DNA of 64,000 bases from Gammaproteobacteria bacterium. Lineage in GTDB: Bacteria > Pseudomonadota > Gammaproteobacteria > Eutrophobiales > Eutrophobiaceae. Positions 1 through 43,467 of this stretch are shown piece after piece; position 1 is the stretch's first letter, and each line of letters opens with the position of its first letter. The notes under the pieces were generated by a model. That model saw only the letters and a list, made by a program, of their open reading frames with translations, did no database searches and had not been told where the DNA came from. The stretch covers positions 1,477,088-1,541,087 of the forward strand of contig OZ220714.1 in the NCBI GenBank assembly GCA_965116585.1. Direction: 5' to 3'. The translations under genes were made by a program, and so were the position numbers.

Positions 1-441
1 TTTGTAGCCCATGACAGTCTTTCGAAAAGCTGTCGGGATATCCCCCCTTGTTCTGTATTCCCTGTTCCATGGAGACGCCCAGTAATTTTCCCGTTCCGTC
101 ATAGCGCCAGTTGTGATAGGAGCATATCGGAAACTTGTTGTTCCCTCGTAATTCCCTGATTACCCTGGCGCCGCGGTGCGCACACCTGTTGACATAAGCG
201 TTTATCGAATCATCATGTGCACGCTGCAATACGACAGGGGTTGTCCCGATGTAAGTAGTCGTGAAATCCCCCGGGTCGGCAATATCGGCGAGGAGGGCTG
301 ACAAATGCCAGGTCGGCCCCTTGAAAATCAATTCCTGTTCCTGTTCAAAAACCTGCTGGTCGATATAAACATCGCATGGAATGAGCGTATGGTCCGAACT
401 GGGCCAGGATACAAGACGGCTATTTGCAGCTTCTGTGCTCA
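1..441 (-). CDS. Rieske [2Fe-2S] aromatic ring-hydroxylating oxygenase alpha subunit, N-terminal part; the gene runs off the window edge
   Basis: Reverse-strand translation from ATG at 439-441 gives MSTEAANSRLVSW...CAHRGARV...CSYHNWRYDG. CxH-X(15-17)-CxxH is the Rieske cluster ligand pattern. Not in the ORF track because the ORF is cut by the window edge. Confidence 0.55.
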
Positions 442-665
442 TATTTCTTCCAGTGTTTAAGAAAGCTCTGACCCAGAGTTTGATTAAATTACCGCACTCT
501 ACCACGTGTTAAAACACTTGTCTCAACATTTATCTGCTATACTATTCCGAGGATTAACAGGTGCCGGATGTCTTTACTCCATTATCCAGCCATGGGGGGA
601 TTATGTACAACCACAACAGTTTGAAGGGCAAATTTCGGTCTTCTCCGGGCAACCATATACTGTCG

Positions 666-18300: not shown

Positions 18301-18868
18301 CGGTCTCCATCTCACGGTTCAGACGCGGCAACTCCTCCTGTTCCTTGCGATCCAATTCGTCATATTCTCGTTCCACCCGCCGTAGTGTCTTCTGCACAGC
18401 GTTCAGATTTTTTTCATCATTCTGCGCAAAGCGCGACCCTAATTTAATGCGTGGCGCGTCCAGATCAAGGCCACCATGCAACCTGTTACGCAACTCTCGG
18501 GCAAAATCGCGGTCGCGGTCATCGTCCATCAGCAAGTGTTCTACGGACAGACGATACATGCCTTTCTGGCCGATACCGGGCAGTGCGGGCGGCATCGCGG
18601 CATTGCCGTCCCGGTACCAGCTTACCTGGCTACCGTTGCGCCGCACACGCCAGGTGCTGTCGCTGCTGACCAATTCGGCCTCCAGGGACAAGGCAATCGG
18701 GTCTTCCCTGCGCGCGCCGCGCAGCAGGTAGCCCAGCGCCCGCTCCAGGCTGCTTTTACCGATGGCGTTCGGCCCGGTGACAATATTGACGCCTTCCCCG
18801 GCAGGCGTAAAGGCAAATCCCGGCTCAATACCGGGCAACGTATGGATTTTGAGTTGTTTGAGATACAT
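15395..18868 (-). CDS. SMC-like AAA ATPase of the YhaN/SbcC type
   Basis: N-terminal Walker A NIVTGPNAIGKSSL. Very long coiled-coil regions. Central hydrophobic segment (LVASGVASLLAWL…LVALIAAVCGLFSL). C-terminal signature/Walker B (SSGTRMQ…LFLDEALTTSDEDRF). Then a ~280-aa extension with no recognisable motif. Likely start MYLKQLKI at 18866-18868, overlapping the upstream stop (TGATG). Confidence 0.8.
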   Translation of the reverse strand: MYLKQLKIHTLPGIEPGFAFTPAGEGVNIVTGPNAIGKSSLERALGYLLRGARREDPIALSLEAELVSSDSTWRVRRNGSQVSWYRDGNAAMPPALPGIGQKGMYRLSVEHLLMDDDRDRDFARELRNRLHGGLDLDAPRIKLGSRFAQNDEKNLNAVQKTLRRVEREYDELDRKEQEELPRLNREMETAKAAQEYLQRLQHGLDLHKAIKAKKICTEELEVYPPAMDKLRGDEQKRLTGLEEKRGTQQDKLREQKRKLHDAQAALEVTGFEHSQPDPARLDTIDRCLQQLAVKEVDRNNLRTELAKADGGLKNACEQFNGAGKPPRLDAQSLEQAETVAVPLIEAKVKQREYQLKLDEADEAPDGAEINRLYDAGSALREWLATNKVESGFQPEASIRRLRMVLWATTLVASGVASLLAWLQQALSTMTAALVALIAAVCGLFSLRRGPTAGLSADEAKLRFGLTGLAGPPDWTTDTVRDYLRVEVDARYGELVEQRASAEQAERTRAELKMVEADITKLEARKHKASEELGFDPELPSVSPDIFMQHCRQLSVAQNDREQAKAALAEVTRDIAEDVAVIRDFLDQWRRVDAPVSEGGEEGQDINLLQASFQHLERRLNKAKDARADVKRCRENIKSIKEDIEDNLAETEKVFTECELEPDAHNELDRRLGLLDEWKAKREALQKAEFEEERIRSRLESHPEIIRNVDEGESAKLQSDFDKASEQAGEYAELVRKHTQITTRLTDAGKDHKLSQARAAVGSAKAALSDKLEEAFMSEATELLLNDVEQAFHNENEPEVLSRARVLFQEITANAFDLLLGKDGVFLAQDIKQKASRNIGELSSGTRMQLLLALRLAWTEAQEQGGETLPLFLDEALTTSDEDRFMVMANSLERLAETEGRQIFYLSARRHEYALWRQATGNEPPVIDLAAVRFPQEGRPPQDYDIALPPALPSPQGREPGDYASALGVPLPNPRQEPGATHLFYLLRDDLELLYQLMDTWRISSLGQLEALLDSDAAASALADNGLRDRLRLRGAVVHAWTLLWRRGRGKPVDRIALEQSRVISDRFMDRVTNLAADVNEDGMALTQALRAGQVSGFRTGKIEELERWLAEEGYTGQEEILSAEARRRQTLQQVMTNRDADVDDVNQQINWLESTTA

Positions 18869-20157
18869 CAGGGGGCGTCCGCGTTTTGCGCCAGCAGTTG
18901 GTCCAGAGCGCGTAACCCTGCTTTGCGTAACCACTCAACCGCATCGGGCTGAGCGGTGTCCAGACCGTTCCATACGGGCTTTTGCCTCTGGTTACGCAGG
19001 CGCCGGGAGGCTCTGCTTACCAGTTCGTCGCGCTGCGGGTGGCCTTCCGGCTCGTCCAGCCACAACAGGCGCTGTGCCAGCAGCCCAGCCGGGGTTGGCT
19101 GCCCGGCAAGTTCCTCAAGGTTTATCTCGGGTCGCGTGGCAAGGCTGACCTTAACGATGAAATAGTTGCGGTTGCCGGAACCGACAGGGATGACCGCTCC
19201 CCTGCTGTTGCTGTCAACCACTTCAGCCAGCGCGGCTGTGCCGAAACGGGTGCGGCCGCACAACGTGAGGCTGACCCCGACGGCATCCGGCGTTGCGGCC
19301 AGTTCATGGGAGCTGGGAAATTCCGTGATCTGACGCTCAAGCTCACGCAATGTGTCCAGCACACGTGTGTTTGCCTGTGCCGGTTCGACTATGCCCTCCA
19401 GGTCAACCTCGACGGTTTCCCAGCGTAGCGGCGCCAGGGGGAGTTGCTCAACACCTTCAATCCGGCCCCCGGTTACGTCGATGAGCCAGGGGCCGTGCAC
19501 GCCGGTTTCACTGCGATCCAGTCCGGTGAGGCTGCCCAGGTAGCCGTGCAACGACTCGGCGGACAGGGCATCCGGTTTGTGGATGTGGCCGAGCAACCAG
19601 CCGTCCAGGCCCGCCTGGCGCAGTTCCTGGCTGCTGACCGGGGCGTAGGGGCTGTCTGTTACATCACGATCACAGTGCAACAAGCCCAGGTGGATGCCGG
19701 TCCCGGTGTCGAAGGTTTGCCCGGCCAGGGGGCTGCTGTGCACCGTCCGGCGGGGGAACGACCAGCCCCAGAGGGTAATCGAATCGGTGTCATCCGCAAC
19801 CTGCCGCGACTCCCATTGACCCTGCGCGCCCAGGAGTTGAAATTCAGGAATTTGTTGTGCCAGTCTTGGCAGGACTTTTACATCGTGGTTACCGGTGACC
19901 CCGATGACCTGGACACCGGCCCCGGTGAGCCGTTTCACACCACGCTCCAGCTCCCGGTAGGCTTCGAAGAAATCGTTTTCCCGTTCGACTACGTCACCGG
20001 CAAGCAGGACGGCCCTGACCCCGGCATCGACAGCGACGTTTACGGCACGCTCCCAGGCGCCACCCGGCCCCAGGCTGCGCGCCTGGCCGGCAAGTTCCTC
20101 AGGCAACCGGGACGGCGTCCACCCCAGGTGCATATCACCGACTGCGAGTATTCTCAT
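18868..20157 (-). CDS. Calcineurin-like metallophosphoesterase, SbcD/Mre11/YhaO-like nuclease
   Basis: Motifs GDMHLG, AGDVVE, GNHD, GHIHKP. Stop overlaps the downstream ATPase start by 1 nt. Confidence 0.85.
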   Translation of the reverse strand: MRILAVGDMHLGWTPSRLPEELAGQARSLGPGGAWERAVNVAVDAGVRAVLLAGDVVERENDFFEAYRELERGVKRLTGAGVQVIGVTGNHDVKVLPRLAQQIPEFQLLGAQGQWESRQVADDTDSITLWGWSFPRRTVHSSPLAGQTFDTGTGIHLGLLHCDRDVTDSPYAPVSSQELRQAGLDGWLLGHIHKPDALSAESLHGYLGSLTGLDRSETGVHGPWLIDVTGGRIEGVEQLPLAPLRWETVEVDLEGIVEPAQANTRVLDTLRELERQITEFPSSHELAATPDAVGVSLTLCGRTRFGTAALAEVVDSNSRGAVIPVGSGNRNYFIVKVSLATRPEINLEELAGQPTPAGLLAQRLLWLDEPEGHPQRDELVSRASRRLRNQRQKPVWNGLDTAQPDAVEWLRKAGLRALDQLLAQNADAP

Positions 20158-20262: not shown

Positions 20263-21480
20263 TCAGCTCCCCTGAAGCGCAGTGATCGGGTCCAGGCGGG
20301 AGGCTTGACGGGCGGGCTGGAAGCCGAAAAACACGCCGACTGCGGAGGCGGTGCCGATACCGCTTACCACGGATATGCCTGAGATGAGGAACTCCCATTC
20401 GGTGAACTGGCAGGCTACCCAGGTCACCAGTAAGCCGAGCACAACGCCAAGCGTTCCCCCCGCCACCGTCAGGATAACGGATTCAATGAGGAACTGGCTT
20501 TGAATGTCCCCCCGGCGTGCGCCCAGCGCGCGCCGGACCGCGATCTCGCGGCGGCGTTCCGCCACGGACACCAGCATGATATTCATGATCCCGATTCCGC
20601 CGACGATGAGGGAGATGCTGCCCACTGCAGCCAACAGCAGGGTCATGATGCGCATTTGCGCTTCCATCCGGGCTATCCATTCCTTGGCGGTGATGATGTC
20701 CAGAAGGAGATCCTGCGACCTGTTCCGCATGAATGAATGAACGTCTTGCACCGCCTGCTCGTAATGGACGCCGGCGCTTGACCTGGCAACGATCACGTCG
20801 ATCTCCGGGTTGTCGTCGAGGCGCTGCGAGGTCGTGATCGGTATGAAGACAGAATTATTTGCCTCCACCCGGATGGGCAAGGTGTAACTTTCTTGTTTGT
20901 CATTCAGTACACCCAGGACCGTGAAGAGTTCCTCGTCAATCTCCAGGATCTGTCCCACAAGCTGTTGTACCCCGACCTGGCGCATTGCCTCGGCAATGCT
21001 GGCGCCAACGACACAGTAGTGGCGGTTGGCATCCAGGTTCGAGATGAACCGGCCGGATGCCATGGACAAACGGTTCACACTGAAGTATGACGCGGTGACT
21101 CCCTGGATGGTTCCCTCGCCGACAGTCTTGCCGGCGTAACGGAAGTCCCCATAGCTCGCGATCCTGGGCGCAGCCTCGGCAATCGAAGGAAGCGCCGGCG
21201 CCAATGCTGTGGCATCTGCCAGGTCAATTTCCGCCTCCTCCTGCTCGGGGGTCGAGGTCTCGTACGACTTGCGAATGATCAGGATGTCGGTGCCGATAGC
21301 TTCGAATTCCTTGCGCGCCTGCTCTCTGGCTATCTCGCCCAACGAGACCATGGTAATAACCGATGAGATACCGATCATGATGCCAAGCAGCCCCAGCAGT
21401 GTGCGCAGCCTTGCCTTGCGCAGGCTGTTAACCGCCTCGCGGGCATTTGCCTGCAGGATTGCAAGAGATCTAGCCCGCAT
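20263..21480 (-). CDS. ABC exporter permease, FtsX/MacB-like (DevC-like) with an N-terminal periplasmic core domain
   Basis: Likely start MRARSLAIL. FtsX-type C-terminal four-helix bundle. The ORF track extends upstream into the ATPase gene. Confidence 0.85.
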   Translation of the reverse strand: MRARSLAILQANAREAVNSLRKARLRTLLGLLGIMIGISSVITMVSLGEIAREQARKEFEAIGTDILIIRKSYETSTPEQEEAEIDLADATALAPALPSIAEAAPRIASYGDFRYAGKTVGEGTIQGVTASYFSVNRLSMASGRFISNLDANRHYCVVGASIAEAMRQVGVQQLVGQILEIDEELFTVLGVLNDKQESYTLPIRVEANNSVFIPITTSQRLDDNPEIDVIVARSSAGVHYEQAVQDVHSFMRNRSQDLLLDIITAKEWIARMEAQMRIMTLLLAAVGSISLIVGGIGIMNIMLVSVAERRREIAVRRALGARRGDIQSQFLIESVILTVAGGTLGVVLGLLVTWVACQFTEWEFLISGISVVSGIGTASAVGVFFGFQPARQASRLDPITALQGS

Positions 21481-22240
21481 ACCCTGCCTGGGCGCCTGCA
21501 AGCGGTTGCCGCGTGGCAGCAACCCCCCGGGCAGACGTTCCCTTCTCCTGCAACAAGCCGTTATTGATGCGCAGTTGGCGCGTGCATTGCCGCGCCACCA
21601 GTGGGTCATGGGTGATGATCAGGATCGTCACCCCCTGCTCCGAGTTCAATTCCAGGAGCAGGGTCATGACCTCGGTCGCGGTGTCGCTATCCAGGGCACC
21701 GGTGGGTTCATCCGCAAGCAACAGCGCCGGCTTTCCCGCCAGTGCCCGGGCAATGGCAACTCGCTGCTTCTGTCCGCCGGAGAGCTGGTCGGGTCGATGC
21801 CCGGCCCAGTCATCCATGCCCACGCGCGCCAGCAGGGTCTGCGCCCGCTGCCTCATCTCCGCCTGCCCCATGCCCCGGTACACCAGCGGCAGGCAAACAT
21901 TTTCGATGGCCGTCAACTGCGGCAACAACTGGAAGGACTGGAACACAAACCCGATGTGCTCATTACGCAGCGAGGACAGCTCGTCATCCGTCAACCCGGA
22001 GATCGCGCGCCCGTTGAGGTAGCAGTCGCCGGTGCCCGGACGGTCGAGCAGGCCAATGATGTTCATCAACGTGGTCTTGCCACTACCCGAGGGCCCCATG
22101 ATCGAGAGCAGGTCACCCGTGTTGACCTCCAGGTGGATGCCTTGCAGGACCTCCCTGGTAGCCGGCCCGATGCGGTAGGACTTGCGCACGTCAACCAGAC
22201 GCAACATTTTATCTGGCGCGTTCATGACGGTAGCCGGCAA
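21470..22240 (-). CDS. ABC transporter ATP-binding protein (DevA/LolD/MacB-ATPase type)
   Basis: Walker A GPSGSGKTT, signature LSGGQKQRVAIARAL, Walker B LLLADEPT. Confidence 0.9.
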   Translation of the reverse strand: MPATVMNAPDKMLRLVDVRKSYRIGPATREVLQGIHLEVNTGDLLSIMGPSGSGKTTLMNIIGLLDRPGTGDCYLNGRAISGLTDDELSSLRNEHIGFVFQSFQLLPQLTAIENVCLPLVYRGMGQAEMRQRAQTLLARVGMDDWAGHRPDQLSGGQKQRVAIARALAGKPALLLADEPTGALDSDTATEVMTLLLELNSEQGVTILIITHDPLVARQCTRQLRINNGLLQEKGTSARGVAATRQPLAGAQAGYAG

Positions 22241-22256
22241 TAGCAGAGGTTGCCAT

Positions 22257-24050
22257 TCATCTTTCCGGGAGGACGATTTCTTCCCCGACCGCGAGTCCAG
22301 CCGTCACTTCGACCGAATCCAGTGTCGTGAAGCCTACTTCGACCGCGCGTTGTTCCAGCGCGGCAGTGTTCGGGTCGAGCACACGCACCCAGGTTTCAGC
22401 GCCGGACTCCTGCACCGCGCCGATCGGGATCAGCAACGCCTCCGGATCGCTGTGTACGATGATCGTGACGTAGGCCGACATGCCGACCCGTAACTGTTCA
22501 CGCGCGTCCGCATCCAACCTGTCCAGGGCAATCACGATATCGAACTCAGGCGTGCCCCGCTGCCTCCTGCCGCCAAGTACGCGCGACGAGACCCGGGTAA
22601 CGGTTCCACCGATTTCCAGGCCCGGAAACCCGGGGCCGGTAATCAAGGCGCGCTGACCGGGCTCGATCTTCCTGACATCCACCTCATCGACACTGGAGGC
22701 TACCGAAATCTGCTCGAAATCGGCGATGCTCAGCAGCAACTCACCCTGGGCCACCGGACGACCTTTGGCCAGGGGCTTGTCCGCAATGCCCGCATCGGCG
22801 ACAACGAGCCCTGCAATCGGGGCCTCGAGCTCAAGTTGATTCAGTTTCTGCTCATGCTGTTCCACCTGGCTTTGCGCATTCTCCACTTGCAGGCGCGCGA
22901 CCCGTCTTGCCTCAGCATCTCCTTTTTCTCTGGTCGATTCCAAATCCCGCTCGGCTTGTTCAAAATCCAGCTTGCGCTCCAGGTGTTGTTGCTGCGCAGA
23001 TTCGTGCTCGGAGGTAGGGACTATCCCCTCTTCCAGTAGAAAAGCAGTACGCTGGAGCCTCAGCTCGGAATCTTCGAGCGCTATTTTTGCCCGTCGCAAC
23101 AGGCGCCGGGCACCCGCCATTTCGTCGCTGTTTTCCCAGTCTTCAAGCTCGAGCAGCCTGTCACGCGCCTGGATATACTCGACCTGGACCCGACGGTAAT
23201 CCATCAGTAGCTGGCCGGGCTCAAGTTCGAGCAGCGCGTCGCCGGCGCCCACTCTCTCGCCATGGGCAACGTGGACCTCACTCACATGGCTGTCGACCGA
23301 GCTGACGACTTTTACGACGTGTCCCGGTGTCAGGTTGCCGCGCACCGCGAGGGTCGAGCGGAACTCCCGGGGTGCAACGGTTATGGTCTGCAAGGCCTCC
23401 GGGTCAGTGGCCTGCTCGGCGGCCTGGCCGTCTGCCAACAGCGCCGGCGCCGGGTCGGAATTGATGACGTCCAGCGGCTGAATGTACCAACCACCAATGG
23501 CGAGAAACAGTCCGGCCACCAATAACGCCGCGACACCACGCGTTGCCTGGACCTTCTTCATCATCACGGACAGCGTCTCGTTGCGGGACTCAATATCCCG
23601 ATAGGCGTTCTGGAGCTCACTGAGCTGGTTCTCGACGACTTTCGCCATGCGCAGTTCGGTCTCGCGCAGTTCCTTGATCTCGGAGATGTCGGAAACCACG
23701 GCAATCATTGCTACCTGCCCGGTCTGTTTTGTCCCGGATGCCAGCAGGTACGAGGTCGTGACGGACAACGAGCGGACTGCGTCACCGATATGCACACTCG
23801 CGATGCGGCGCTTGATCTCGCCCCGCTCGGTAATGGCATCCAGGATAATCTCGACGAACTCGTCAAAGCCCTCAAATGCCACAAATATTTCTGCAAAGGG
23901 GCGACCGGTTACCGCCTCGGCCTCGAGTCCGAAGATTTGGCAAAAGGCAGGATTGGTGAGACGCACGGCCCCATCGGTATCAACTGCCATCACACCGTCG
24001 GACAGGTTCTCCAGCAAAGTCCGGTAAATGTCTTGAGGGTCGTTTGCCAT
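22257..24050 (-). CDS. Membrane-fusion (HlyD/DevB-type) periplasmic adaptor with an N-terminal cytoplasmic PAS domain
   Basis: N-terminal ~130 aa PAS-like (LLENLSDGVMAVDTDGAVRLTNPAFCQIFGLEAEAVTGRPF). One transmembrane helix (GVAALLVAGLFLAIGGWYIQ). Coiled coil, then HlyD-type beta domains. ATG at 24048-24050 overlaps the TolC stop (TAATG) and has a GGAGA RBS. Confidence 0.8.
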   Translation of the reverse strand: MANDPQDIYRTLLENLSDGVMAVDTDGAVRLTNPAFCQIFGLEAEAVTGRPFAEIFVAFEGFDEFVEIILDAITERGEIKRRIASVHIGDAVRSLSVTTSYLLASGTKQTGQVAMIAVVSDISEIKELRETELRMAKVVENQLSELQNAYRDIESRNETLSVMMKKVQATRGVAALLVAGLFLAIGGWYIQPLDVINSDPAPALLADGQAAEQATDPEALQTITVAPREFRSTLAVRGNLTPGHVVKVVSSVDSHVSEVHVAHGERVGAGDALLELEPGQLLMDYRRVQVEYIQARDRLLELEDWENSDEMAGARRLLRRAKIALEDSELRLQRTAFLLEEGIVPTSEHESAQQQHLERKLDFEQAERDLESTREKGDAEARRVARLQVENAQSQVEQHEQKLNQLELEAPIAGLVVADAGIADKPLAKGRPVAQGELLLSIADFEQISVASSVDEVDVRKIEPGQRALITGPGFPGLEIGGTVTRVSSRVLGGRRQRGTPEFDIVIALDRLDADAREQLRVGMSAYVTIIVHSDPEALLIPIGAVQESGAETWVRVLDPNTAALEQRAVEVGFTTLDSVEVTAGLAVGEEIVLPER

Positions 24051-25447
24051 TACGGGAGAGTCTCCACTTGAATGCCCCAACTGTCCAGGGTGCGGCCTGA
24101 GATATAGTCAAGCCGCGTCAGCACGTCGAGATAGCTGAGGATCGCATCCACCTCGGCCACTTCGGCCTGTACGAGTTCGTCCTCGGACGACGATACCTCG
24201 AAGGATGATGACAGGCCATAACCGAATTTCTCGCGTTCAATGTCCAGGTTCTCTTCTGCCAGCAGGCGCGCGTCGCGGGCCAGTTCCGTCAACCGATGCC
24301 CTACCTTGACGTCGTTGACAGCCTGACGTACGGACACGTCGATCGACTCGCGCAGCTCAAGCTGGGCTCTCTCGGCTTTGAGCAGGTCGTTACGCGCCCT
24401 GAGACGGTCCACGTCGCGAAAACGGTCATTGAAAGGGATGGAAATGTCCAGCCGCACTTGCGCGTCCTTGCGTCCCGGGTCGTTATCGCTCAACTCAACC
24501 CCCAGGGACAGGTCCGGCAACCGGTTGTTTTTGGCAACCGCCAGGTTGATGCGGGCAATGTCGATCAGCGCTCCGGATTGAAGGTAATCGGCGCGCTTGC
24601 GCAACGCTTCTGCGAATACCGCTTCGAAGGTGGCCCGGTTCGACTCAACGTTCAATCTTTCCAACGGATGGATACGCACCGTACTGCCCAGTTCGAGGAT
24701 GTCAAGCAAACGGAAGTTTGCGGCGTCCAGGCGGTTGCGCGCCTGGGTCAGCGCCAGCTCTCGGGTGGCGATGGTTACCTCGGCGCGCACCGCTTCCCGC
24801 TCTGCCACGCGCCCGGCGCGTATCAGGGCGCGGGTTGCTTGCAACTGCTCACGCGCGCGCTGCAATGCGGTCTCGGAAATCTCCACTTGCCGCACCGCGC
24901 CGATAAGCGTGCGGTATGCGCTGATGACCGCAACGACCAGATCTTCCACCGTCTGCCGAAACGAGAGCACGTTAAGCCTTTCACCCAGCCGGGCCTGCCG
25001 GATCGGGGCAGTCTCTATGTCAATCCAGGCGCCTTTCAACAGCGGCTGGGAAAAACTCAGGGACTGCGAGCGGGAATCCTCGAACTCGCTGGACAGTCTT
25101 TCATCCCAGCGCAGGGCGAACTGGCCGCCGGTGGGCACGCGCATGCTGACCTGGCTGCTGACTCCCGTCTCGCGATCCTGCCGGTCCTTGCTGACGAAGG
25201 GGCGGAGGGTGGCTCGAGGCGTCCAACGGTCTTCAACCACTTCCAGGGAAAATTTTTGCACCTCGCGATCCAGGCGCCGGTTAAGCAGCGGCCGGTTCTG
25301 CTCCAGCGCGAGATCGATCGCCCGCTCCAGGGTCAGGTCGAGCGGTGCGGTGTCCGCGCTCAGGGACAGCGGGACCAGCAGGAAGGCTACGGCCCAGACA
25401 TATTGCAGCAAAATTCGCACAGGGTTTCTGATCGGACGTTGCCTCAT
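24050..25447 (-). CDS. TolC-family outer-membrane efflux channel
   Basis: Signal peptide. Two-repeat OEP architecture. Typical TolC N-terminus LERAIDLALEQN. Confidence 0.85.
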   Translation of the reverse strand: MRQRPIRNPVRILLQYVWAVAFLLVPLSLSADTAPLDLTLERAIDLALEQNRPLLNRRLDREVQKFSLEVVEDRWTPRATLRPFVSKDRQDRETGVSSQVSMRVPTGGQFALRWDERLSSEFEDSRSQSLSFSQPLLKGAWIDIETAPIRQARLGERLNVLSFRQTVEDLVVAVISAYRTLIGAVRQVEISETALQRAREQLQATRALIRAGRVAEREAVRAEVTIATRELALTQARNRLDAANFRLLDILELGSTVRIHPLERLNVESNRATFEAVFAEALRKRADYLQSGALIDIARINLAVAKNNRLPDLSLGVELSDNDPGRKDAQVRLDISIPFNDRFRDVDRLRARNDLLKAERAQLELRESIDVSVRQAVNDVKVGHRLTELARDARLLAEENLDIEREKFGYGLSSSFEVSSSEDELVQAEVAEVDAILSYLDVLTRLDYISGRTLDSWGIQVETLP

Positions 25448-34044: not shown

Positions 34045-34200
34045 AACCCTCCTTAAAATGCCACCTCTTGACCATCAGCGTGACCTATGTACTATACTTC
34101 ATAAAGAGCCAGTAACAACGCGCAATAACACCCGGCACAGGCCGCACCATGAATAACACGATGTAATAATAATTGGAGGCTATCCTCATGAGCAAACCCG
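34045..34200 (+). promoter_or_regulatory. Promoter/5'UTR block of giant gene 1 (TTGACC-16/17-TACTAT around 34068-34096); ~150 bp near-identical copy at 40938-41092
   Basis: Direct sequence comparison. Only ~3 mismatches over the shared ~140 bp, including an identical GGAGG RBS and MSKP start. Confidence 0.65.
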
Positions 34201-37200
34201 TTGGAACCCTTGAGCAAATCGCTGATCAACTGATTCAAGGCGCCATCAAATGGGCCACGTCCAGCGCCAGGCCCATCCCGGTGGATCTCTCCCGCCTTGA
34301 CGCCGACGGCCAATTCCTCGCCCGCACCGCGCTCGACTTGTGGACCAGCGCCACCGGCATCAGGTTCGAGGAGGTCAGCATCCCAGTCGACCAGGGCGGG
34401 ACTCCGCAGGACCGCGGCATACTCTTCGAGTATCACAGTTCATCCCAGTTCACTTGGCATACCTATGGTGTCGACGGCTGGATTTCCTCCTCCGTCCGTG
34501 TGCGCCAGGCCGTTGCGTCCAACGCCGTCAGCCAGAATCAGTCCGGCGAATACACCATCGACAATCCGCGATCACTGCATATTTTCGTGCACGAGATCGG
34601 CCATGCCCTCGGGCTTGGGCATCCCGGTAACTACGACGGCGGCGGGGTGACTTATGAGAATAACGCCAAATTCGCCAACGACAGTTGGCAGATCTCGGTC
34701 ATGTCCTACTTCAGGCAAGAGGAGAACACCTGGCTCGACGCCACCAACGCTGGTCCGGCGACCCCCATGGCCGCCGACATCCTCGCCCTTGAGAAGCTTT
34801 ACGGAGACAGCAATGCCATCCGTACCGGCGACACTACCTATGGCTTCCATTCCGACGCCGGCGGCTTCCTCGACGAGCTTGCCCGGCACATGCAGGCAGG
34901 CGGGCTGTTCGCCTTTACCCTGATCGACGACGGCGGCACGGACACTTTTGATTATTCCGGTGCCAGTAAGGACAGCCGCGTTGACCTGACCCCCGGTGCC
35001 GCCTCCGACATCTTCGGTGGCGAGGGCAACATGGTGATCTACCAGGACAGCGTCATCGAGCATTTTGCCGGTGGCGCCGGTGCTGACGATGTCACCGGCA
35101 ATGATGTCAACAACGTGCTTCGTGGCAATGCAGGGAATGACACACTCGATGGCGGCGAGGGTAATGACATTCTGATCGGTGGCGCCGGCGGCGATACCTT
35201 GACGGGTGGCGCCGGCACCGACACCTTCTGGTTTGCGCACAGTAATTTCGGCGCCGACACCATCACCGATTTCGAGGATGGCGCGGAGCAGATCAGTTTC
35301 AGCGGCTCGGGACTCAGCTATACCGATCTCACCATCAGCGACAGTGGCGCCGACAAGCTCATCGACGCCGGCGCTGGCAACCGTATCACCCTGACCGGGC
35401 AGGCGGGCGCCACGATTGACGCGGCGGACTTCGTCTTCGTCGAGCCGAGCCTGACCATCGACGACGTCACGGTCATTGAAAGCGGCACCGCCCGGTTTGT
35501 GCTGCGCCTGTCCAGCGCTGTCACGACCAACGTTGCTGTCGAATGGCGCACTCAGGATGGTACTGCTATTGACGGCAGCGACTATAAGGGCGCCAGCCAA
35601 TGGCAGACTGCCGTAATTCGTGCGACAGAGCTCGAAACGGCAATTGAAATTCGGATAGCCCACGACCTCATCGTTGAGGGCGACGAGAATTTCAGCCTTG
35701 AGCTGCGCAATCCGCAAGGCGCTACCCTCACCGATGCGACGGTCGAAGCTGTCATCAAGAACGCCGCCCCACCCGTCGTATCGGTTGGGGATGTCACGGT
35801 TAACGAATCACAAGGCCCGGCGCAGATTCCCGTCACGCTTGACCGGCCGCTCGAGGCAGGTGAGCAGGTCACTTTCCGCTTACGCTTTCTTGACGGCACC
35901 GCTGAAGGAGGGGCTGATTACAATGTTCTGAAGAATGCCGCCGCCAGGAAGGTATACGTCATCGAGGGTGAGGGCGCCGACCAGTTGCTCGTGCCGCGTG
36001 CCGTAATCAACGATAAACTCCACGAGTCAGACGAGCAGTTCACGCTTGAGATTTTCAACGTTGAAGGCGCAACGGTGGCGGATGCGACCGGCACTGTCAC
36101 TATCGTCGACAATGACAATGATTCCCATCCCACAATCTCATTAGGCGCCTCAGGGATTGCGAATGAAGGCCGCTATGCCATCGTAGGTGTGCAGTTGAGC
36201 AAGCCGCACGATGAAGAAATCACTGTCTACTATACGGTGAATAATTTTACCGCGACAGAGGGTGAGGACTATTTGCGTGGCTACACGGGCTCTTCGGGAC
36301 AAGTCACTGTGCCAGCGGGTCAGCTTTACGCGCCGATTGTTGTGGAGACCCTAGCTGACAGCAAGGACGAAGGATGGTATGAGGATGCCTTGGTGCGAAT
36401 TACCGGTGTCGAGGGAAATTTCAAGCTTCAGCGATTTGCGACCCAGCGCTCAATAACCATCTACGAGGATAACTACAAAACAATCCATCCTGTCAGCATT
36501 GAAGATATTACCGTCATTGAAGGCGGGAAGGCCCAAATAACTCTCAGCAAGCCTACCCGGTATGATGGCGGTGTCTTGATAGATGTGAGCACCGCAGATG
36601 GCACGGCGCAGGCTGGTAGCGACTATATAGCCGTCACCAATCAGCAGGTCTTTATTCCTTCGGACGCCTACAGCGCCAGTTTTACCGTGGACATCCTGGA
36701 TGATGGTGTTCTCGAAGGTGAGGAAAGCTTCAAAGTCATCTTGAACGAACTGAAAGGTGGCGCCAGGCTGGTGGATTCGGTTGCCACTGTCTCGATACTC
36801 GACGGGCCTTCTTCAACAGGGCAGGAACAGCAAGCGGAGGAGACGCCCGCATACGATGGTCTGACCGTCACCGGCACCGACGCCGGTGAGATATTGGAAG
36901 GTGACAGGGACGGCGACCTGATCGAAGGCCTTGGCGGGAATGACGATCTGTTCGGCTACGGCGGCGATGACATCATCAGGGGTGGGCCCGGCAAGGATTT
37001 CCTCGAAGGCGGCGCGGGCGATGACATACTCGAGGGTGGCGCGGACAGCGACGTCCTGACCGGCGCACTCGGTAACGACACTTTGCGCGGCGGCGCCGGT
37101 GCGGATGCGTTTGACATCTACGGTGGAGACGGGCAGGACGTGGTGGAAGACTTCGATCCGGATGCCGGCGATATGGTCATCCTGGACTCGGTGGGCTTTG

Positions 37201-40187
37201 CCGACTATGCCGGGATGCTGGCTAACCATGCCGTGCAGGACGGCAATGACGTGGTGATTTATACCGACGAAAGCGGCACGACCAATAGTGTCACATTAAA
37301 GAACACGCAACTGTCGGACCTGAGCGCGAACGATTTCTCGATCACACCATCGGAAGATTTCAGCGAGGACATTAGCCAGGACACGGGGCAGGGGGCCGAT
37401 CCGGACTACAGCGAGTTGATTGGCATGGTGCGGGGCTATGCTGCGGAGACGTTCCAGGGTCAGGCGCACGTGGACCGCTGGATGAAGGTGCTGGCGGCCT
37501 TTGGTGATGACAACGGCTATGCGCCCATGACGGCGGAGGAAGCCCAGACCTATGCCGGTTACGGCTGGCACCGCTGGCTACGGGTGGCCGAGGCATTGAC
37601 CGAAATCGAAGCGGAACAGGAGGCAAGCACGCCGCCGGTGGCCGCTATCGACAATGTGACCGTCACCGAGGGCGGCGATGCCGCGTTCACTGTGAGTCTC
37701 AACAAGACCTGGACCGAGGACGTCACCCTTACCTGGAGAATAGCCGACGGCACAGCAACGTATGGCAGCGACTACACCGGCCAGACCGGCCAAACCCTGA
37801 CCATCGCCGCGGGCCAGCAGAGTGCGACCATCACCGTGCAGACCACTGATGATGCCATCGACGAGCCGGATGAAACCTTCGCTGTCATATTGAGCGCTCC
37901 CTCCAATGCCACCATCGGCACAGCCGCAGGAGAGGCCACCCTCACCGACAACGATGCCGCGCCCTCATTGTCCATTGACGACGTAACCGGGACCGAAGGC
38001 GATATGCTCCAGTTCACTGTCTCGCTCGATGCAGTCTCCGGCAAGGACGTTACTGTCAACTGGAGCACGACCGACGGCACTGCAACGGATGGCAGCGACT
38101 ACACCGGCCAGACCGGTCAAACCCTGACCATCACCGCCGGCCAGCAGGATGCCACCATTACGGTGCCGACCACCGACGACAGTGACGATGAGCCAGACGA
38201 GACCTTCACTATCACCCTGAGCTCCCCCACCAATGCCACCCTGGGCGATACCAGCGGCGAAGCCACCCTCACCGATAACGATGACCCGCCACCACCAGGC
38301 AAGTACGACGCGCTGATTGCCGACGTGCGTGACTATGCCGCCGAGACGCACCAGGGCCAGGCCCACGTGGACCGCTGGATGCAGGTGCTGGCGGCCTTTG
38401 GTGATGACAATGGCTATACGCCCATGACTGCGGAGGAAGCCCAGACATTCGCCGGTTACGGCTGGCACCGCTGGCTACGGGTGGCCGAAGCATTGACCGA
38501 AATCGAAGCAGAGCAGGCGGCGCAGCAAGCGGCAAGCACGCCGCCGGTGGCCGCTATCGACGATGTATCCGTCACCGAAGGCGGCGATGTCGAGTTCACC
38601 GTCAGTCTCGACAAGACCTGGACAGAAGACGTCACCCTTACCTGGGACACGTCCGACGGCACAGCTACAGATGGCAGCGACTACACCGGCCAGACCGGTC
38701 AGACACTCACCATCGCCGCCGGCCAGCAAGACGCCACCATAACAGTGCAGACCACCGATGACGCCATTGATGAGCCGGATGAGAACTTTACGGTGACCTT
38801 GAGCGCTCCCACCAATGCCACCATCGGCACAGCCACCGGGGAGGCCACCCTCACCGACAACGACGCCGCGCCGTCGCTGTCCATTGATGATGTAAGCGGG
38901 ACCGAAGGCGACATGCTCGAGTTCACCGTCTCGCTCGATGCGGTCTCCGGCAAAGACGTGACGGTCAACTGGACTGCGACCGACGGCACGGCAACAGATG
39001 GCAGTGACTACACCGGCCAGACCGGTCAAACCCTCACCCTCGCCGCGGGCGCACATTTCGCGACCCTCTGGGTGCAGACCACGGATGACAGTGAGGATGA
39101 GACCGACGAGACCTTTACCATCACCTTGAGTTCACCCACCAACGCCACCATCAGCGATGCCATTGGCGAGGCCACCATTACCGACAACGATGAGCCCACC
39201 CCCTCCCTGGACGACCCGCTCACCCCGCCCGACAACGGCCAGGGGAAGAAGGCGGAGGAAGGGAATGACTACAGCGAGCTGATTGCCGACGTGCGCGCTT
39301 ATGCTGCCGAAACCCACCAGGGACAGGTCCACGTGGACCGCTGGATGCAAGTGCTGGCGGCGCTGGGCGAGGACAACGGCTATACCCCCATGAGTGCCAC
39401 CGAGGCCCAGACCTACGCCGACCGTGGCTGGGCGCGCTGGGACCCGGTGGTGGAAGCCTTGACCGAGATAGAGGCGGAATCCGAGCCAGAGCCAGAGCCA
39501 GAGCCTGAACTCGAACCAGACCCGGAACCCGAACCCGAGCCAGACCCGGAACCAGAGCCGGAACCCGAGCCGGACCCGGAACCCGAACCCGACCCGGCGC
39601 CCACCCCCTGGCACCACAACGGCCTCACCCTGACCGGCACCGACGAGGTGGACTCGCTGGTTGGCTCAGACGACAACGACCTGATCGACGGGCGCGGGGG
39701 CAGGGACTATATCAACGGTAGCTTCGGCCACGACCGCATGACCGGCGGCGCGGGCGATGACAGGTTTACCATCTACGGCAACTTCGGCCGCGACGTGATC
39801 ACCGATTTCAACCCGGATGAGGGCGACAGCTTCTTCCTCATCCAGGTGGGCTTCGCCGACTTCGACGAGATGCTGGCGAACCATGCCGAACAAATCGGCA
39901 ACGACGTGGTCATTTACACCGATCCCAGCGGCAAGGAAGACAGCATCACCTTGTTGGACACCGACCTTGCCGATCTGGACGAATCCCAGTTTGCGATTTT
40001 CGCGGGCACGGGGCCGACGCCACCGGCGTCTCAGTTGAGCGCTCAGGTAGCCGGCCGCGTGTCCGTGCCGGCGCTGTCGTTGGCCTTGGGGGATGGGGGT
40101 GTGGGGGGTTACGATGCCGGTGTGGATGAGTTTGGCATTGAGGCACTGATAGGAGACTATTACGACGGGTACTTTGGGATTGTTTAG
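34188..40187 (+). CDS. Giant secreted multidomain protein: serralysin-like (M10B) zinc metalloprotease + RTX beta-roll + multiple Calx-beta domains + 3 copies of an unrecognised ~70-aa module + Glu/Pro linker + RTX repeats + C-terminal tail; likely a type I secretion substrate
   Basis: [12 protein letters not shown] zinc motif and SVMSY Met-turn. GGxGxD nonapeptide runs ([35 protein letters not shown]). Repeated Calx-beta-like units (…DGTAxxGSDY…). No N-terminal signal peptide. ATG at 34188 with a GGAGG RBS; the ORF-track start at 34173 is a TTG. Confidence 0.9.
39478..39600 (+). repeat. (GARCCN)n hexanucleotide microsatellite encoding an (E/D)P dipeptide linker
   Basis: gagccagagccagagccagagcctgaactcgaaccagacccggaacccgaacccgagccagacccggaacc… translates to [40 protein letters not shown]. 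Confidence 0.85.
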
Positions 40188-40279: not shown

Positions 40280-40651
40280 TTATTTCGGAAAGTACCTGAC
40301 GTTTTTTAAATCCTTGAAATCCATATCCTGCGTCCATATTGTTGCATTATATCTCCGCGCCGTTGCGTAAATTATGCTGTCTGCCAAGGGAAGTTTATAT
40401 TCAACTCCAAAGTAGGCCGCTTTCACCGCCAACCCCTCAGTCAGTGAAACAACCTTCCCCTGTTCCATATGTGTAATAGCCTTCAGAGCTGCATCCTCAC
40501 CCCGCCGACGCATGATAACTTTGAAAACCTCAGTCAAGGTGATGCTGGGCACCAGCAATTCTTCCAGTCGTCCAATCGGTTCGGCAAAACATCGTGAATT
40601 TTTTTCACTGGTAAAATAGGATAACCACCCGGATGAGTCGACCACGTTCAT
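40280..40651 (-). CDS. vapC: VapC-type PIN-domain toxin
   Basis: MNVVDSSGWLSYF N-terminus. Conserved PIN acidic residues. 123 aa. ATGA overlap with the upstream antitoxin. Confidence 0.85.
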   Translation of the reverse strand: MNVVDSSGWLSYFTSEKNSRCFAEPIGRLEELLVPSITLTEVFKVIMRRRGEDAALKAITHMEQGKVVSLTEGLAVKAAYFGVEYKLPLADSIIYATARRYNATIWTQDMDFKDLKNVRYFPK

Positions 40652-40854: not shown

Positions 40855-41079
40855 GGGAGCTCTTCCATCGAAAAAATATGGTACTACGATAGTATTATCG
40901 ATACGGGATGTCAAGAAAAAGCAACACCCTGTTCAAAAACAACCCAAATCCCAAACCTCTTGACCATCAGCACGACCTATGTACTATACTTCATAAAGAG
41001 CCAGTAACAACGCGCAATAACACCCGGCACAGGCCGCACCATGAATAACACGATGTAATAATAATTGGAGGCTATTCCC

Positions 41080-43467
41080 ATGAGCAAACCTAGCATATCG
41101 GTTGGGGATGTCACGGTTAACGAATCACAAGGCCCGGCGCAGATTCCCGTCACGCTTGACCGGCCGCTCAAGGCAGGCGAACAGGTCACTTTCCGCGTGC
41201 GCTTTCTTGACGGCACCGCGGAAGGCGGGCCTGACTACAATCCTCTGCAGAATGCCGCCGCCAGGAAGGTATACGTCATCGAGGGCGAGGGAACCGATCA
41301 GTTGCTCATTCCGCGCGCCGTGATTAACGACAGACTTCACGAGTCTGACGAGCAGTTCACGCTTGAGATTTTCAACGTTGAAGGCGCAACGGTGGCGGAT
41401 GCGACCGGCACTGTCACCATCGTCGATAACGATAGTGATACTTCCCAGCCGACAGCCTTCATCGGGGACTTCGCAAAAGTGATTGAAGGCAACTACGCTG
41501 TCTTGCAGATAGGGCTGAGCAAGCGAGTCGCGCACGATGTCACAGTTACTTATGAGCTGGTGGACGATTCCGCGACAGCGGGTGAGGACTATGAGCGCGG
41601 CTACTCTGGCGCTCTGGGAACAGTCACCATCCCCGCGGGGCAGGCCAGTGCGCCAATCACAGTGCAAACCCTGCCCGACAACCTCAGTGAAGGTGGGGAG
41701 TTGCTTATCATATTTATCCGCGAGGTCAATGGAGGCGTTACCCATCCACCCCTGAATGCAGGCTTCGTGAAGATCTATGACGACAGGAAATTTCCACTTC
41801 CTGGCATTACCATTGACGATGTTACCGTCATTGAGGGCGGCAAGGCACAGTTCACCGTCAAGCTGGCATATGCTGCTTCCGGCGGTGTCACGCTGGACTG
41901 GAGCACTTCGGACGGCACGGCGCAAGCCGACGACGACTACGTTGCGGTGACCAATCAGCAGGTTTTCATTCCCGGGCCCGAAAAAAGTGCCACCTTCACC
42001 GTGGATATCCTCAGTGATGCTGTTCTCGAAGGCGAGGAAAGCTTCACCGTGACCTTGAGCAATCCGCAAGGTTTCGGTCGCCTGGTGGACGCGACGGGCA
42101 CAGTCACGGTGCTCGACGGGCCTGTTTCAACAGGGCAGGCACAGCAAGCGGAGCAGGAGCCCGCGCAACAAGAGACGCCCGCATACGATGGTCTGACCGT
42201 CACCGGCACCGACGCCGGTGAGGTGCTCGAAGGCGACGTGGACGGCGACCTGATCGAGGGCCTTGGCGGGAATGACGATCTGTTCGGCTACGGCGGCGAT
42301 GACATCATCAGGGGCGGGCCCGGCAAGGATTTTCTCGAAGGCGGCGCGGGCGATGACACGCTCGAGGGTGGCGCGGACAGCGACGTCCTGACCGGCGCCG
42401 AGGGCAACGACACCTTGCGCGGCGGCGCGGGCGCGGATGCGTTTGACATCTACGGCGGAGACGGGCAGGACGTGGTGGAAGACTTCGATCCGGATGCCGG
42501 CGATATGGTCATCCTGGACTCGGTGGGCTTTGCCGACTATGCCGGGATGATCGCCAACCATGCCGTGCAAAACGGTAATGACGTGGTGATTTATACCGAC
42601 GAGAGCGGTACCACCAACAGCGTCACCCTGAAGAATACGCTGCTATCGGACCTGAGTGCGAACGATTTCTCGATCACACCATCGGAAGCTTTCAGCGAGG
42701 ACAATAGCCAGGACACGGGGCAGGGGACCGATCCGGACTACAGCGAGTTGATTGGCATGGTGCGGGGCTATGCTGCGGAGACATTCCAGGGTCAGGCGCA
42801 CGTGGACCGCTGGATGCAGGTGCTGGCCGCGTTTGGTGATGACAACGGCTACACGCCCATGAGTGCCACCGAGGCGCAGACCTACGCCGACCGCGGCTGG
42901 TCGCGCTGGGACCCGGTGGTGGAAGCATTGACCGAAATCGAAGCGGAGCAGGCGGCGCAACAACAAGAGCCGGCCCCCACGCTGGACGATCTCACCACAC
43001 CTGACAACGGCCAGGGGAAGAAATCGGAGGAAGGGAACGACTACAGCGGGCTGATTGCCGACGTGCGCGGCTATGCCGCCGAGACGCACCACGGCCAGGC
43101 CCATGTCGACCGCTGGATGAAAGTGCTGGCGGCCTTCGGCGATGACAACGGCTATACGCCCATGACCGCCGCCGAGGCGCAGGAGATGGCCGACAAATGG
43201 TCGGCGAGCCGCTGGAACCCGGTGGTGGAAGCCCTTACCGAGATCGAAGCGGAACAGGCAGCGCAACAAGCCAGGGATACCTCAACCGAACCCGACCCGG
43301 CGCCCGATCCTGTACCCCAAACCGAGCCAGACCCGGCACCCGAACCCGTCCCGGCGCTGTCATTGGCCTTGGGGGATGGGGGTGTGGGGGGGTACGATGC
43401 CGGTGTGGATGAGTTTGGCATTGAGGCGCTGATAGGGGACTATTACGACGGGTACTTTGGGAATTAG
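41080..43467 (+). CDS. Truncated mosaic paralog of the giant protein: Calx-beta domains + RTX repeats + 2 copies of the unknown module + the same C-terminal tail; no protease domain
   Basis: Same 5'UTR and MSKP start. N-terminus aligns to gene 1 at ~35.77 kb. Blocks identical to gene 1 alternate with diverged blocks. Confidence 0.85.
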   Translation: MSKPSISVGDVTVNESQGPAQIPVTLDRPLKAGEQVTFRVRFLDGTAEGGPDYNPLQNAAARKVYVIEGEGTDQLLIPRAVINDRLHESDEQFTLEIFNVEGATVADATGTVTIVDNDSDTSQPTAFIGDFAKVIEGNYAVLQIGLSKRVAHDVTVTYELVDDSATAGEDYERGYSGALGTVTIPAGQASAPITVQTLPDNLSEGGELLIIFIREVNGGVTHPPLNAGFVKIYDDRKFPLPGITIDDVTVIEGGKAQFTVKLAYAASGGVTLDWSTSDGTAQADDDYVAVTNQQVFIPGPEKSATFTVDILSDAVLEGEESFTVTLSNPQGFGRLVDATGTVTVLDGPVSTGQAQQAEQEPAQQETPAYDGLTVTGTDAGEVLEGDVDGDLIEGLGGNDDLFGYGGDDIIRGGPGKDFLEGGAGDDTLEGGADSDVLTGAEGNDTLRGGAGADAFDIYGGDGQDVVEDFDPDAGDMVILDSVGFADYAGMIANHAVQNGNDVVIYTDESGTTNSVTLKNTLLSDLSANDFSITPSEAFSEDNSQDTGQGTDPDYSELIGMVRGYAAETFQGQAHVDRWMQVLAAFGDDNGYTPMSATEAQTYADRGWSRWDPVVEALTEIEAEQAAQQQEPAPTLDDLTTPDNGQGKKSEEGNDYSGLIADVRGYAAETHHGQAHVDRWMKVLAAFGDDNGYTPMTAAEAQEMADKWSASRWNPVVEALTEIEAEQAAQQARDTSTEPDPAPDPVPQTEPDPAPEPVPALSLALGDGGVGGYDAGVDEFGIEALIGDYYDGYFGN

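Follow-up and report, generated by a model that had tools for sequence, protein, structure and literature searches.

Two neighboring genes in a 64,000-nucleotide (nt) stretch of the genome of a Gammaproteobacteria bacterium (assembly GCA_965116585.1, contig OZ220714.1, forward-strand positions 1,477,088 to 1,541,087; the whole of this analyzed stretch is called the window here, and coordinates are counted from its first letter) encode RTX/Calx-beta proteins in which a module of ~72-73 amino acids (aa) recurs, and the locus raises the question of what this module is and what it is for. The first half of the question has a firm answer: the domain is absent from the curated domain and structure libraries searched, and the existence and novelty of the family are near certain. 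Its kind is already known, both as the small attachment module and as the laterally spread family enriched in sponge symbionts; this domain is new. For the second half, we read the function from architecture and distribution and judge, with a probability of roughly 0.6, that the module is portable and serves to attach to, or recognize, a ligand of the sponge habitat.

Five in-frame copies of the module are distributed over two paralogous + strand open reading frames (ORFs). Taking D/G-x-Y ... EIEAE as the bounds of the core, three copies fall in gene 1 (34188..40187, +; 1999 aa from the ATG at 34188, the likely start within an ORF spanning 34173-40187), namely g1c1 at 37398..37616 (+; [11 protein letters not shown]...ALTEIEAE), g1c2 at 38295..38513 (+) and g1c3 at 39261..39479 (+). 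The other two fall in gene 2 (41080..43467, +; a protease-less paralog of 795 aa with its likely ATG at 41080 in an ORF spanning 41065-43467), namely g2c1 at 42730..42948 (+), a mosaic of c1-type and c3-type sequence, and g2c2 at 43033..43254 (+). The motif HVDRWM occurs three times in the gene 1 ORF and twice in that of gene 2. An earlier note on this DNA had listed the same five repeats; all are present and in frame within the two ORFs, and its coordinates were right to within 1-8 nt, although four of the five were out of frame. Its statement that the copies are >85% identical at the protein and DNA level holds for some pairs and fails for others: pairwise identity ranges from 58% to 86% in protein and from 63% to 86% in DNA, with protein values of 86% for both g1c1/g2c1 and g1c3/g2c1, 84% for g1c1/g1c2 and 74% for g1c1/g1c3. 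Pairs that include g2c2 reach 58-62% when compared ungapped (73% against g1c1 in a gapped alignment, A1); this copy is of a 'WSASRW' subtype, also found in the relatives P0001 and P0003, and has a 1-aa insertion in the loop between helices 3 and 4. The described alternation of modules with Calx-beta pairs is a feature of gene 1, where the array runs c1, two Calx-beta (37632-38291), c2, two Calx-beta (38541-39197), c3, but not of gene 2, where only a 28-aa linker separates the copies.

When a five-copy profile was searched with HMMER against 1.84 billion representative proteins, 902 matched at E<=1e-3, 563 at E<=1e-10 and 126 at E<=1e-30, well past anything that chance would produce, and 144 of the 150 top proteins carry two to five module copies. 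A word-indexed homolog search returned nothing with one module or with an alignment of 71 relatives (mutually <60% identical); because the exhaustive HMMER search finds 902 clusters, these nulls reflect a limit of the tool rather than absence, and indexed searches are unreliable as evidence of absence for short, repeat-embedded domains. The signature of the family is L-x3-V-x2-Y-A-x-E-T-x2-G-x2-H-V-x-R-W-x-R-V-L-x-A-F-G-(6-14 aa)-P-M-T-A-x-E-A-Q-x-Y-A-D-x-G-W-x-R-W-x-P-V-V-x-A-L-x2-L-E. Computed on 216 sequences <80% identical, conservation is complete at W28 and W61, 98-99% at L32 and A50, 91-92% at H24, R27, E49 and L68, and 87-89% at R30, M45, R60, V64 and E72. The tryptophans that had been singled out by eye (in HVDRW and RW) are thus the only two invariant residues in the family. 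Ten polar positions are 69-92% conserved (E17, H24, R27, R30, T46, E49, Q51, D55, R60 and E72).

Given only the five window copies, AlphaFold2 returned four helices with a predicted local distance difference test (pLDDT) score of 85; with the 71-sequence alignment the pLDDT was 96.9 and the predicted template modeling score 0.86, all five models scoring at least 94.5. The predicted helices comprise residues 6-16, 23-35, 47-55 and 60-76. The module is therefore predicted, with high confidence, to be a compact, autonomously folding four-helix domain, in keeping with the small folded domain first proposed. Its two helix hairpins (profile columns 20-35 and 57-70) share the pattern RW-x2-V-[LV]-x-A-[FL] (RWxRVLxAF in one, RWxPVVxAL in the other), and their comparison by hhalign (E 2.5e-4, probability 43%) hints that the four-helix domain may have arisen by ancient duplication of a two-helix unit.

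The same note had declared the module unassignable to any known family, and this was borne out by Pfam-A, NCBIfam, PHROGs, PDB and Foldseek alike. No significant match was obtained in Pfam-A, NCBIfam, PHROGs or the PDB sequences for the window modules or the 71 relatives. Against Pfam, NCBIfam and PHROGs, window copy 1 hit no family and the other window copies gave chance-level scores (E 0.026-0.32); when the 71 relatives were scanned singly, no family was matched by more than two members (best E 0.026 in Pfam, 0.0034 in NCBIfam), and the 71-sequence profile found nothing in the PDB below E 0.04. Foldseek, run with the pLDDT-97 model against the PDB and BFVD, returned at best a template modeling (TM) score of 0.45 and an E of 1.6, short of the E<=1e-3 or TM>=0.5 taken to denote a known fold. 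Nor did searches of the literature on sponge symbionts turn up a description of the domain.

Several specific candidates were considered and rejected. The module has no match to Calx-beta (PF03160), a ~100-aa beta-sandwich, and is predicted to be all-helical; the GGxGxDxUx repeats of the RTX nonapeptide (PF00353) are absent from it, so that the original exclusion of both families stands. Dockerin (PF00404), which has two duplicated segments of 22 aa with a conserved Ca2+-binding loop in each, gave no Pfam match, and the D-D-N-G loop of the window copies is variable in the family (VIQHTSS or ETVPGFTGT, for example), for which reason a Ca2+-binding DDNGY loop was also rejected. Neither SLH (PF00395) nor PG_binding_1 (PF01471) matched at E<=0.1 among the 71 members and the window copies. 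Haem_oxygenas_2 (PF14518) scored 14-15 bits per module against a cut-off of 28.9 bits, over profile positions 38-107 (~70 of 177); scanning two copies at once brings the total to 25.7 bits, and E 0.1 was not attained by any of the 71 diverse modules. A resemblance to GH13 (PF00128; alpha-glucosidase, trehalose-6-P hydrolase) appeared at E 0.026-0.06 over one helical segment of ~70 aa (379-448), which was also the best hit of phmmer against all PDB sequences (E 0.06). This echo was set aside because it is sub-threshold, confined to a single helical segment, and lost when the 71-sequence profile is compared with the PDB. A polymorphic-toxin or pre-toxin element was rejected on the ground that C-terminal modules are conserved rather than variable.

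Where the module resides is suggested by its cysteines and its company. Among 430 unique modules, a Cys at profile column 70 (helix 4) occurs in 59 and is in every case accompanied by one just before helix 1, while in the remaining 371 the column-70 Cys is never present and an N-terminal Cys stands alone in seven (Fisher p = 3e-65, a value inflated by relatedness, the all-or-none pattern itself being clear); such pairing fits a disulfide that would link helix 4 with the N-terminus. Four related ORFs, from Spirochaetia, Pseudomonadales and an unclassified metagenome-assembled genome (MAG), begin with sequences that resemble signal peptides (L003, L004, L015 and L052). The partner domains in 64 relatives are of adhesin type, with Calx-beta in 15, Bact_surface_Ig-like in nine, fn3 in eight and InlK_D3 in five, besides LapA, Big_x, HYR and cadherin, and many carriers show no other Pfam domain at all. 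Together, the co-varying Cys pair, the signal peptides and the adhesin-type partners point to an extracellular location. Modules usually come in pairs, between or after beta-sandwich domains (Calx-beta, fn3, Ig-like, cadherin). In relatives, Pro/Gln/Glu-rich linkers set them off, and 50 of 150 relatives finish with a module no more than 6 aa short of the C-terminus. An unannotated family of giant proteins is greatly expanded in the alphaproteobacterial MAGs CAXXPN01, OY763326 and CAXXWS02 (L005-L014, L025), where single genomes contain seven or more paralogs of ~1,750-2,150 aa. Each of these proteins has two adjacent modules, placed alike in all of them, and Calx-beta and LapA are its only other Pfam domains.

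Genomes were scanned, one per GTDB species, by pattern and by tblastn with a 10-sequence alignment (A3), using two short peptide patterns that favor close relatives, so that divergent members could be missed. The scan gave 202 confirmed loci, and taxonomy and habitat were read from the best 80, all of which lie in MAGs or draft genomes with names pointing to marine-sponge symbionts. The carriers include Candidatus (Ca.) Synechococcus spongiarum SH4 and other cyanobacteria; Ca. Poriferisocius, Ca. Aldehydirespirator and other Acidimicrobiia; Ca. Poriferihabitaceae, Pseudomonadales and other Gammaproteobacteria; Alphaproteobacteria; and Spirochaetia, Ca. Binatia, Ca. Dadabacteria, Dehalococcoidia and Phototrophicaceae. 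At least seven phyla are represented, and at least one phage carries the module too. Up to seven or more module loci occur in one genome, and mis-binning is made less likely by the many loci that are located on megabase contigs or complete chromosomes. With the same patterns, 241 million metagenome records yielded only seven loci, four in LXNI01 (Sarcotragus foetidus) and MKWU01 (Aplysina aerophoba), the sponge metagenomes of Horn et al. 2016 (PMC5099237), and three on Ga02090xx/Ga02095xx contigs. From the organism names and these two documented metagenomes we infer that the carriers live in sponges. The Aldehydirespiratoraceae include sponge-symbiotic lineages, and symbiotic Actinobacteriota are enriched in Calx-beta, fn3 and cadherin (PMC11706023).

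Within this set of carriers the module appears, by comparison of its sequences, to be mobile. The best cross-phylum module identities are 93% for Alphaproteobacteria/Gammaproteobacteria, 89% for Binatia/Gammaproteobacteria, 81% for Actinomycetota/Alphaproteobacteria and 79% for Cyanobacteria/Gammaproteobacteria, and they exceed those between some copies inside gene 1. Attachment genes with cadherin and fn3 domains are laterally exchanged among sponge symbionts (PMC8163846). Two IMG/VR contigs (UViG_3300009910_000008 and UViG_3300009846_000003) carry a phage module gene, at 811-1920 (+) of L082 and 28-729 (+) of L083, respectively. Its 369-aa product bears a single C-terminal module after a Gln-rich linker and has no PHROG match; directly downstream are genes for an HNH endonuclease, a head maturation protease (1e-87), a major head protein (2e-82), a head-tail adaptor and a portal fragment. 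No match was found in 72,556 PLSDB plasmids and 50,697 GenBank phages.

Taken together, these properties suggest that the module would dock its carrier protein to a ligand particular to the sponge interior (for instance host matrix, a glycan or a component of the host cell surface), with several copies per protein conferring avidity. In the window, the modules would tether a serralysin-like protease/adhesin of the type I secretion system (T1SS) type (gene 1) and its protease-less paralog (gene 2). For the binding function, our confidence is moderate. Several points weigh against the attachment reading. The case for binding is drawn from architecture and distribution, and the conserved polar residues could equally form salt bridges within the fold and have no part in a binding site. 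The window copies are internal with Calx-beta pairs on their flanks, an arrangement that also fits a structural joint. As to habitat, the evidence consists of organism names, read from the best 80 of the 202 genome loci, and two documented metagenomes; divergent members elsewhere could be missed, and long-read sponge MAGs may be over-represented among good matches.

The alternative that fares best takes the partner to be bacterial rather than host-derived. The module would then be a self-association or re-anchoring tag resembling dockerin or SLH, bound by itself, by a cohesin-like protein, or by the cell's own envelope or exopolymer. We consider such a tag, which would keep secreted proteins on the cell or glue symbionts together, unlikely, even though much about the module would suit it and homophilic or symbiont-to-symbiont binding is a rival to be taken seriously. 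Dockerin type I and SLH domains are likewise portable, ~55-70 aa long, partly helical and appended to many different secreted proteins of one genome, and they are often C-terminal and in tandem, attaching proteins to a common receptor; the module shares this placement, being often C-terminal and often in tandem pairs, is of similar size (~70 aa), and has in its hairpins a hint of two-fold internal duplication (the hhalign E of 2.5e-4 given above). Several to ten module genes occur per genome, and the very high conservation across phyla would suit a homophilic contact. On the other side, the envelopes of the carriers differ widely (diderm Proteobacteria, Cyanobacteria and Spirochaetes versus Actinomycetota and Chloroflexota), which makes a common self-envelope ligand unlikely and, with the habitat restriction, argues against anchoring to the bacterium's own wall. 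There is no Pfam signal of dockerin, cohesin or SLH, and other family members do not conserve the Asp/Asn-rich loop seen in the window copies. In contrast to dockerin and SLH, the module lacks conserved EF-hand-like Ca2+ loops and a TRAE-type motif, matches neither in sequence, and is predicted to be a four-helix bundle with two invariant Trp; it is found in sponge-associated bacteria of many phyla, whereas dockerin and SLH belong to cellulolytic Firmicutes or S-layer bearers.

A bolder version of the attachment reading, which we regard as distinctly improbable, makes the module a 'symbiont badge' common to many phyla, a four-helix surface tag spread by lateral transfer and phages and recognized by the sponge or by its aggregation-factor/matrix system. 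If true, it would mean that residents are retained and spared phagocytosis while food bacteria without the tag are digested. A close parallel to the distribution is offered by the eukaryotic-like and adhesion proteins of sponge symbionts (ankyrin, LRR, TPR, cadherin, fn3 and Calx-beta), which are multi-copy, cross-phylum and laterally transferred, as the module appears to be. Ankyrins are also borne by phages ('ankyphages') in sponge symbionts, as the module is by the phage described above. These eukaryotic-like domains are classical Pfam families with eukaryotic counterparts, whereas the module belongs to no curated family and is not known to have a eukaryotic counterpart, so that enrichment studies based on Pfam or COG could not see it. 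Sponge symbionts are enriched in, and exchange laterally, attachment proteins with cadherin, fn3 and Calx-beta domains (PMC8163846, PMC11706023). On the host side, the sponge aggregation factor is an extracellular Ca2+-dependent adhesion complex composed largely of Calx-beta and a lineage-specific Wreath domain; the latter is encoded by demosponges in three exons, two of 523 and 336 bp (~860 bp), and is always C-terminal (PMC5400394). By analogy, it is conceivable that the aggregation factor is a ligand or mimicry target of the module. Homology between the module and the Wreath domain, compared by description only, is unlikely from the size mismatch, the Wreath domain being much larger than ~72 aa.

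It is still less probable that the module is an inert helical joint or spacer, without a ligand of its own, that fixes the geometry between beta-sandwich domains of long surface fibers. The regular alternation with Calx-beta pairs in gene 1 and the Pro/Glu/Gln-rich linkers on the flanks would agree with such a role, and small helical bundles are known as rod elements in giant Gram-positive surface proteins. There, the FIVAR, GA module and DUF1542 (Ebh-type) repeats of ~50-70 aa are strung along the protein, and some of them bind host ligands. Like the module, they are helical, repeated and alternate with other domains, but they are three-helix bundles with Pfam models of their own, none of which matches the module, and their taxa and habitat differ. 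A mere spacer is argued against by the one third of top relatives that end with the module, by the single, terminal copy in the phage protein, and by the many conserved polar residues. Two invariant Trp, together with His, Arg and Glu positions conserved at 88-92%, across seven phyla exceed what a spacer needs, and the habitat restriction would be left unexplained. The last alternative, that the repeats are a DNA element or chance similarity inside a spurious ORF rather than a protein feature, takes its support from long opposite-strand ORFs that also overlie the repeat DNA and can be dismissed: all copies keep a single reading frame in ORFs where strong Pfam domains flank them, protein conservation extends over seven phyla with E down to 1e-131, and AlphaFold2 confidence is very high.

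The module bears on two long-standing questions: by what means a sponge discriminates its resident symbionts from bacteria taken as food, and how unrelated phyla, dozens of them, have converged on the sponge niche. Work on both has relied almost entirely on 'eukaryotic-like' repeats defined by Pfam. On present evidence the module is a candidate genomic marker of the sponge-symbiont lifestyle, a small candidate protein, easy to express, with which to fish for ligands and assay phagocytosis, and a new family for Pfam or InterPro. The locus also illustrates how giant surface proteins diversify through cassettes of module plus Calx-beta, by duplication, deletion and short conversion tracts.

The traces of this diversification are legible in the window and its relatives. 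Self-blastn delimits a tandem duplication at 37428..39197 (+) of a ~870-nt cassette composed of a module and two Calx-beta domains, the two copies of which (37428-38287 and 38325-39197) are 85% identical in DNA. Copy g2c1 was scored for type at the sites that differ between g1c1 and g1c3: it is c1-type at nt 2-111 of the module (25 of 27 sites), c3-type at nt 124-195 (22 of 24) and again c1-type at nt 198-213 (4 of 4), with a Fisher p of 7e-8 that refers to the best breakpoint and is uncorrected for ~54 possible breakpoints. The chimera of c1 and c3 that had been noticed in this copy is therefore real, but the single crossover implied for it is not, since the third stretch reverts to c1-type; what remains is a c3-type gene-conversion patch of ~70 bp at 42853..42924 (+). 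Copy number varies as well. Relative P0001 has one cassette fewer than gene 1, and P0003, which is 80% identical to gene 1 over 1154 aa, is without c2 and all four inter-module Calx-beta domains and keeps a fused Calx-beta remnant, 'STPPVA|TITDND'. The mosaic copy and the variation in copy number support the idea that the repeats drive recombination, for which 'intragenic' was too narrow a word; conversion between paralogs appears to be included along with unequal exchange within the array. Cassettes of module plus Calx-beta change by tandem duplication, deletion and short-tract gene conversion. In addition, the Pro/Glu linker after g1c3 (39470-39597) is an imperfect 6/18/54-nt tandem repeat of GAGCCA/GAACCC units and is likely a hotspot of length variation.

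Gene 1, whose start site has a GGAGG and an ATG, opens with a serralysin-like Zn-protease and a first RTX block, followed by four Calx-beta domains and a second RTX block; the remainder comprises the module array, the Pro/Glu linker, a third RTX block and a C-terminal tail. The zinc motif HEXXHXXGXXH reads [11 protein letters not shown] (34590-34622, aa 140-150). Pfam reports Calx-beta in eight stretches (E 6e-96), HemolysinCabind, Peptidase_M10_C (E 9e-18) and Peptidase_M10 (E 1.6e-5). By sequence reading, the Calx-beta segments of gene 1 lie at 35448-36806, 37632-38291 and 38541-39197 (+), and the RTX blocks of the two genes at 36852-37355, 39612-40007 and 42184-42687 (+), the best Pfam stretch (aa 927-962) being inside one of them. 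Because the NCBIfam Zn_serralysin score is 213 bits, under the 500-bit full-length cut-off, the N-terminus is best described as that of a serralysin-family metalloprotease at the domain level and not an equivalog. With the serralysins and the giant RTX/Calx-beta adhesins gene 1 shares the zinc motif, Peptidase_M10_C, RTX nonapeptides and the eight Calx-beta domains; it differs from them in the unusual fusion of a serralysin-like head to a Calx-beta/module/RTX tail of ~1600 aa. Gene 2 shares three Calx-beta domains and RTX with the adhesins. The module is part of neither family.

According to blastn, gene 2 is a copy of gene 1 with three deletions, its blocks 41096-42956, 42960-43354 and 43346-43462 corresponding to 35779-37624, 39184-39579 and 40063-40179, respectively. 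The promoter, 5' leader and first four codons have been kept and joined straight onto the second Calx-beta of gene 1, after which the two genes are co-linear up to c1, followed by the pre-c3 linker, the second module and the tail, the last at 96% DNA identity. The resulting order is three Calx-beta, an RTX block, c1, the 28-aa linker, c2, a Pro/Asp linker and a C-terminal tail as in gene 1. An exact-protein look-up of gene 2 returned no record.

The ~135 nt upstream of the two paralogs (34063-34199 and 40955-41091) are ~98% identical, compared with 78-91% for coding DNA, and contain a sigma-70-like TTGACC-16-TACTAT, a leader of ~90 nt, GGAGG and the first four codons (MSKP). An Rfam scan of the common 5' leader gave no match; the stretch may be a conserved regulatory leader or the product of recent conversion. 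At the other end, both proteins finish in ~39 aa ([38 protein letters not shown]; 40065-40184 and 43348-43464) that form the best-conserved coding segment, with 96% DNA identity, and that recur in P0001 and P0022 but not in P0003. This tail may be a type I secretion signal or some other C-terminal sorting tag.

Between the paralogs lies a gene for a PIN-domain (VapC-like) toxin (40280-40651, -), and elsewhere in the window a 1179-aa ORF (15395-18934, -) has no Pfam match at E<=1e-5. About 9 kb upstream of the paralogs, a tripartite MacB-type ABC transporter (20263-25447, -) consists of a MacB_PCD/FtsX permease, an ATPase, a membrane-fusion protein and an OEP outer-membrane factor. It was considered as a dedicated T1SS and rejected, being of the FtsX/MacB_PCD and not the HlyB type, which leaves the RTX proteins without an exporter in view. 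The membrane-fusion protein of this transporter (PAS-HlyD) has an unusual N-terminal PAS domain.

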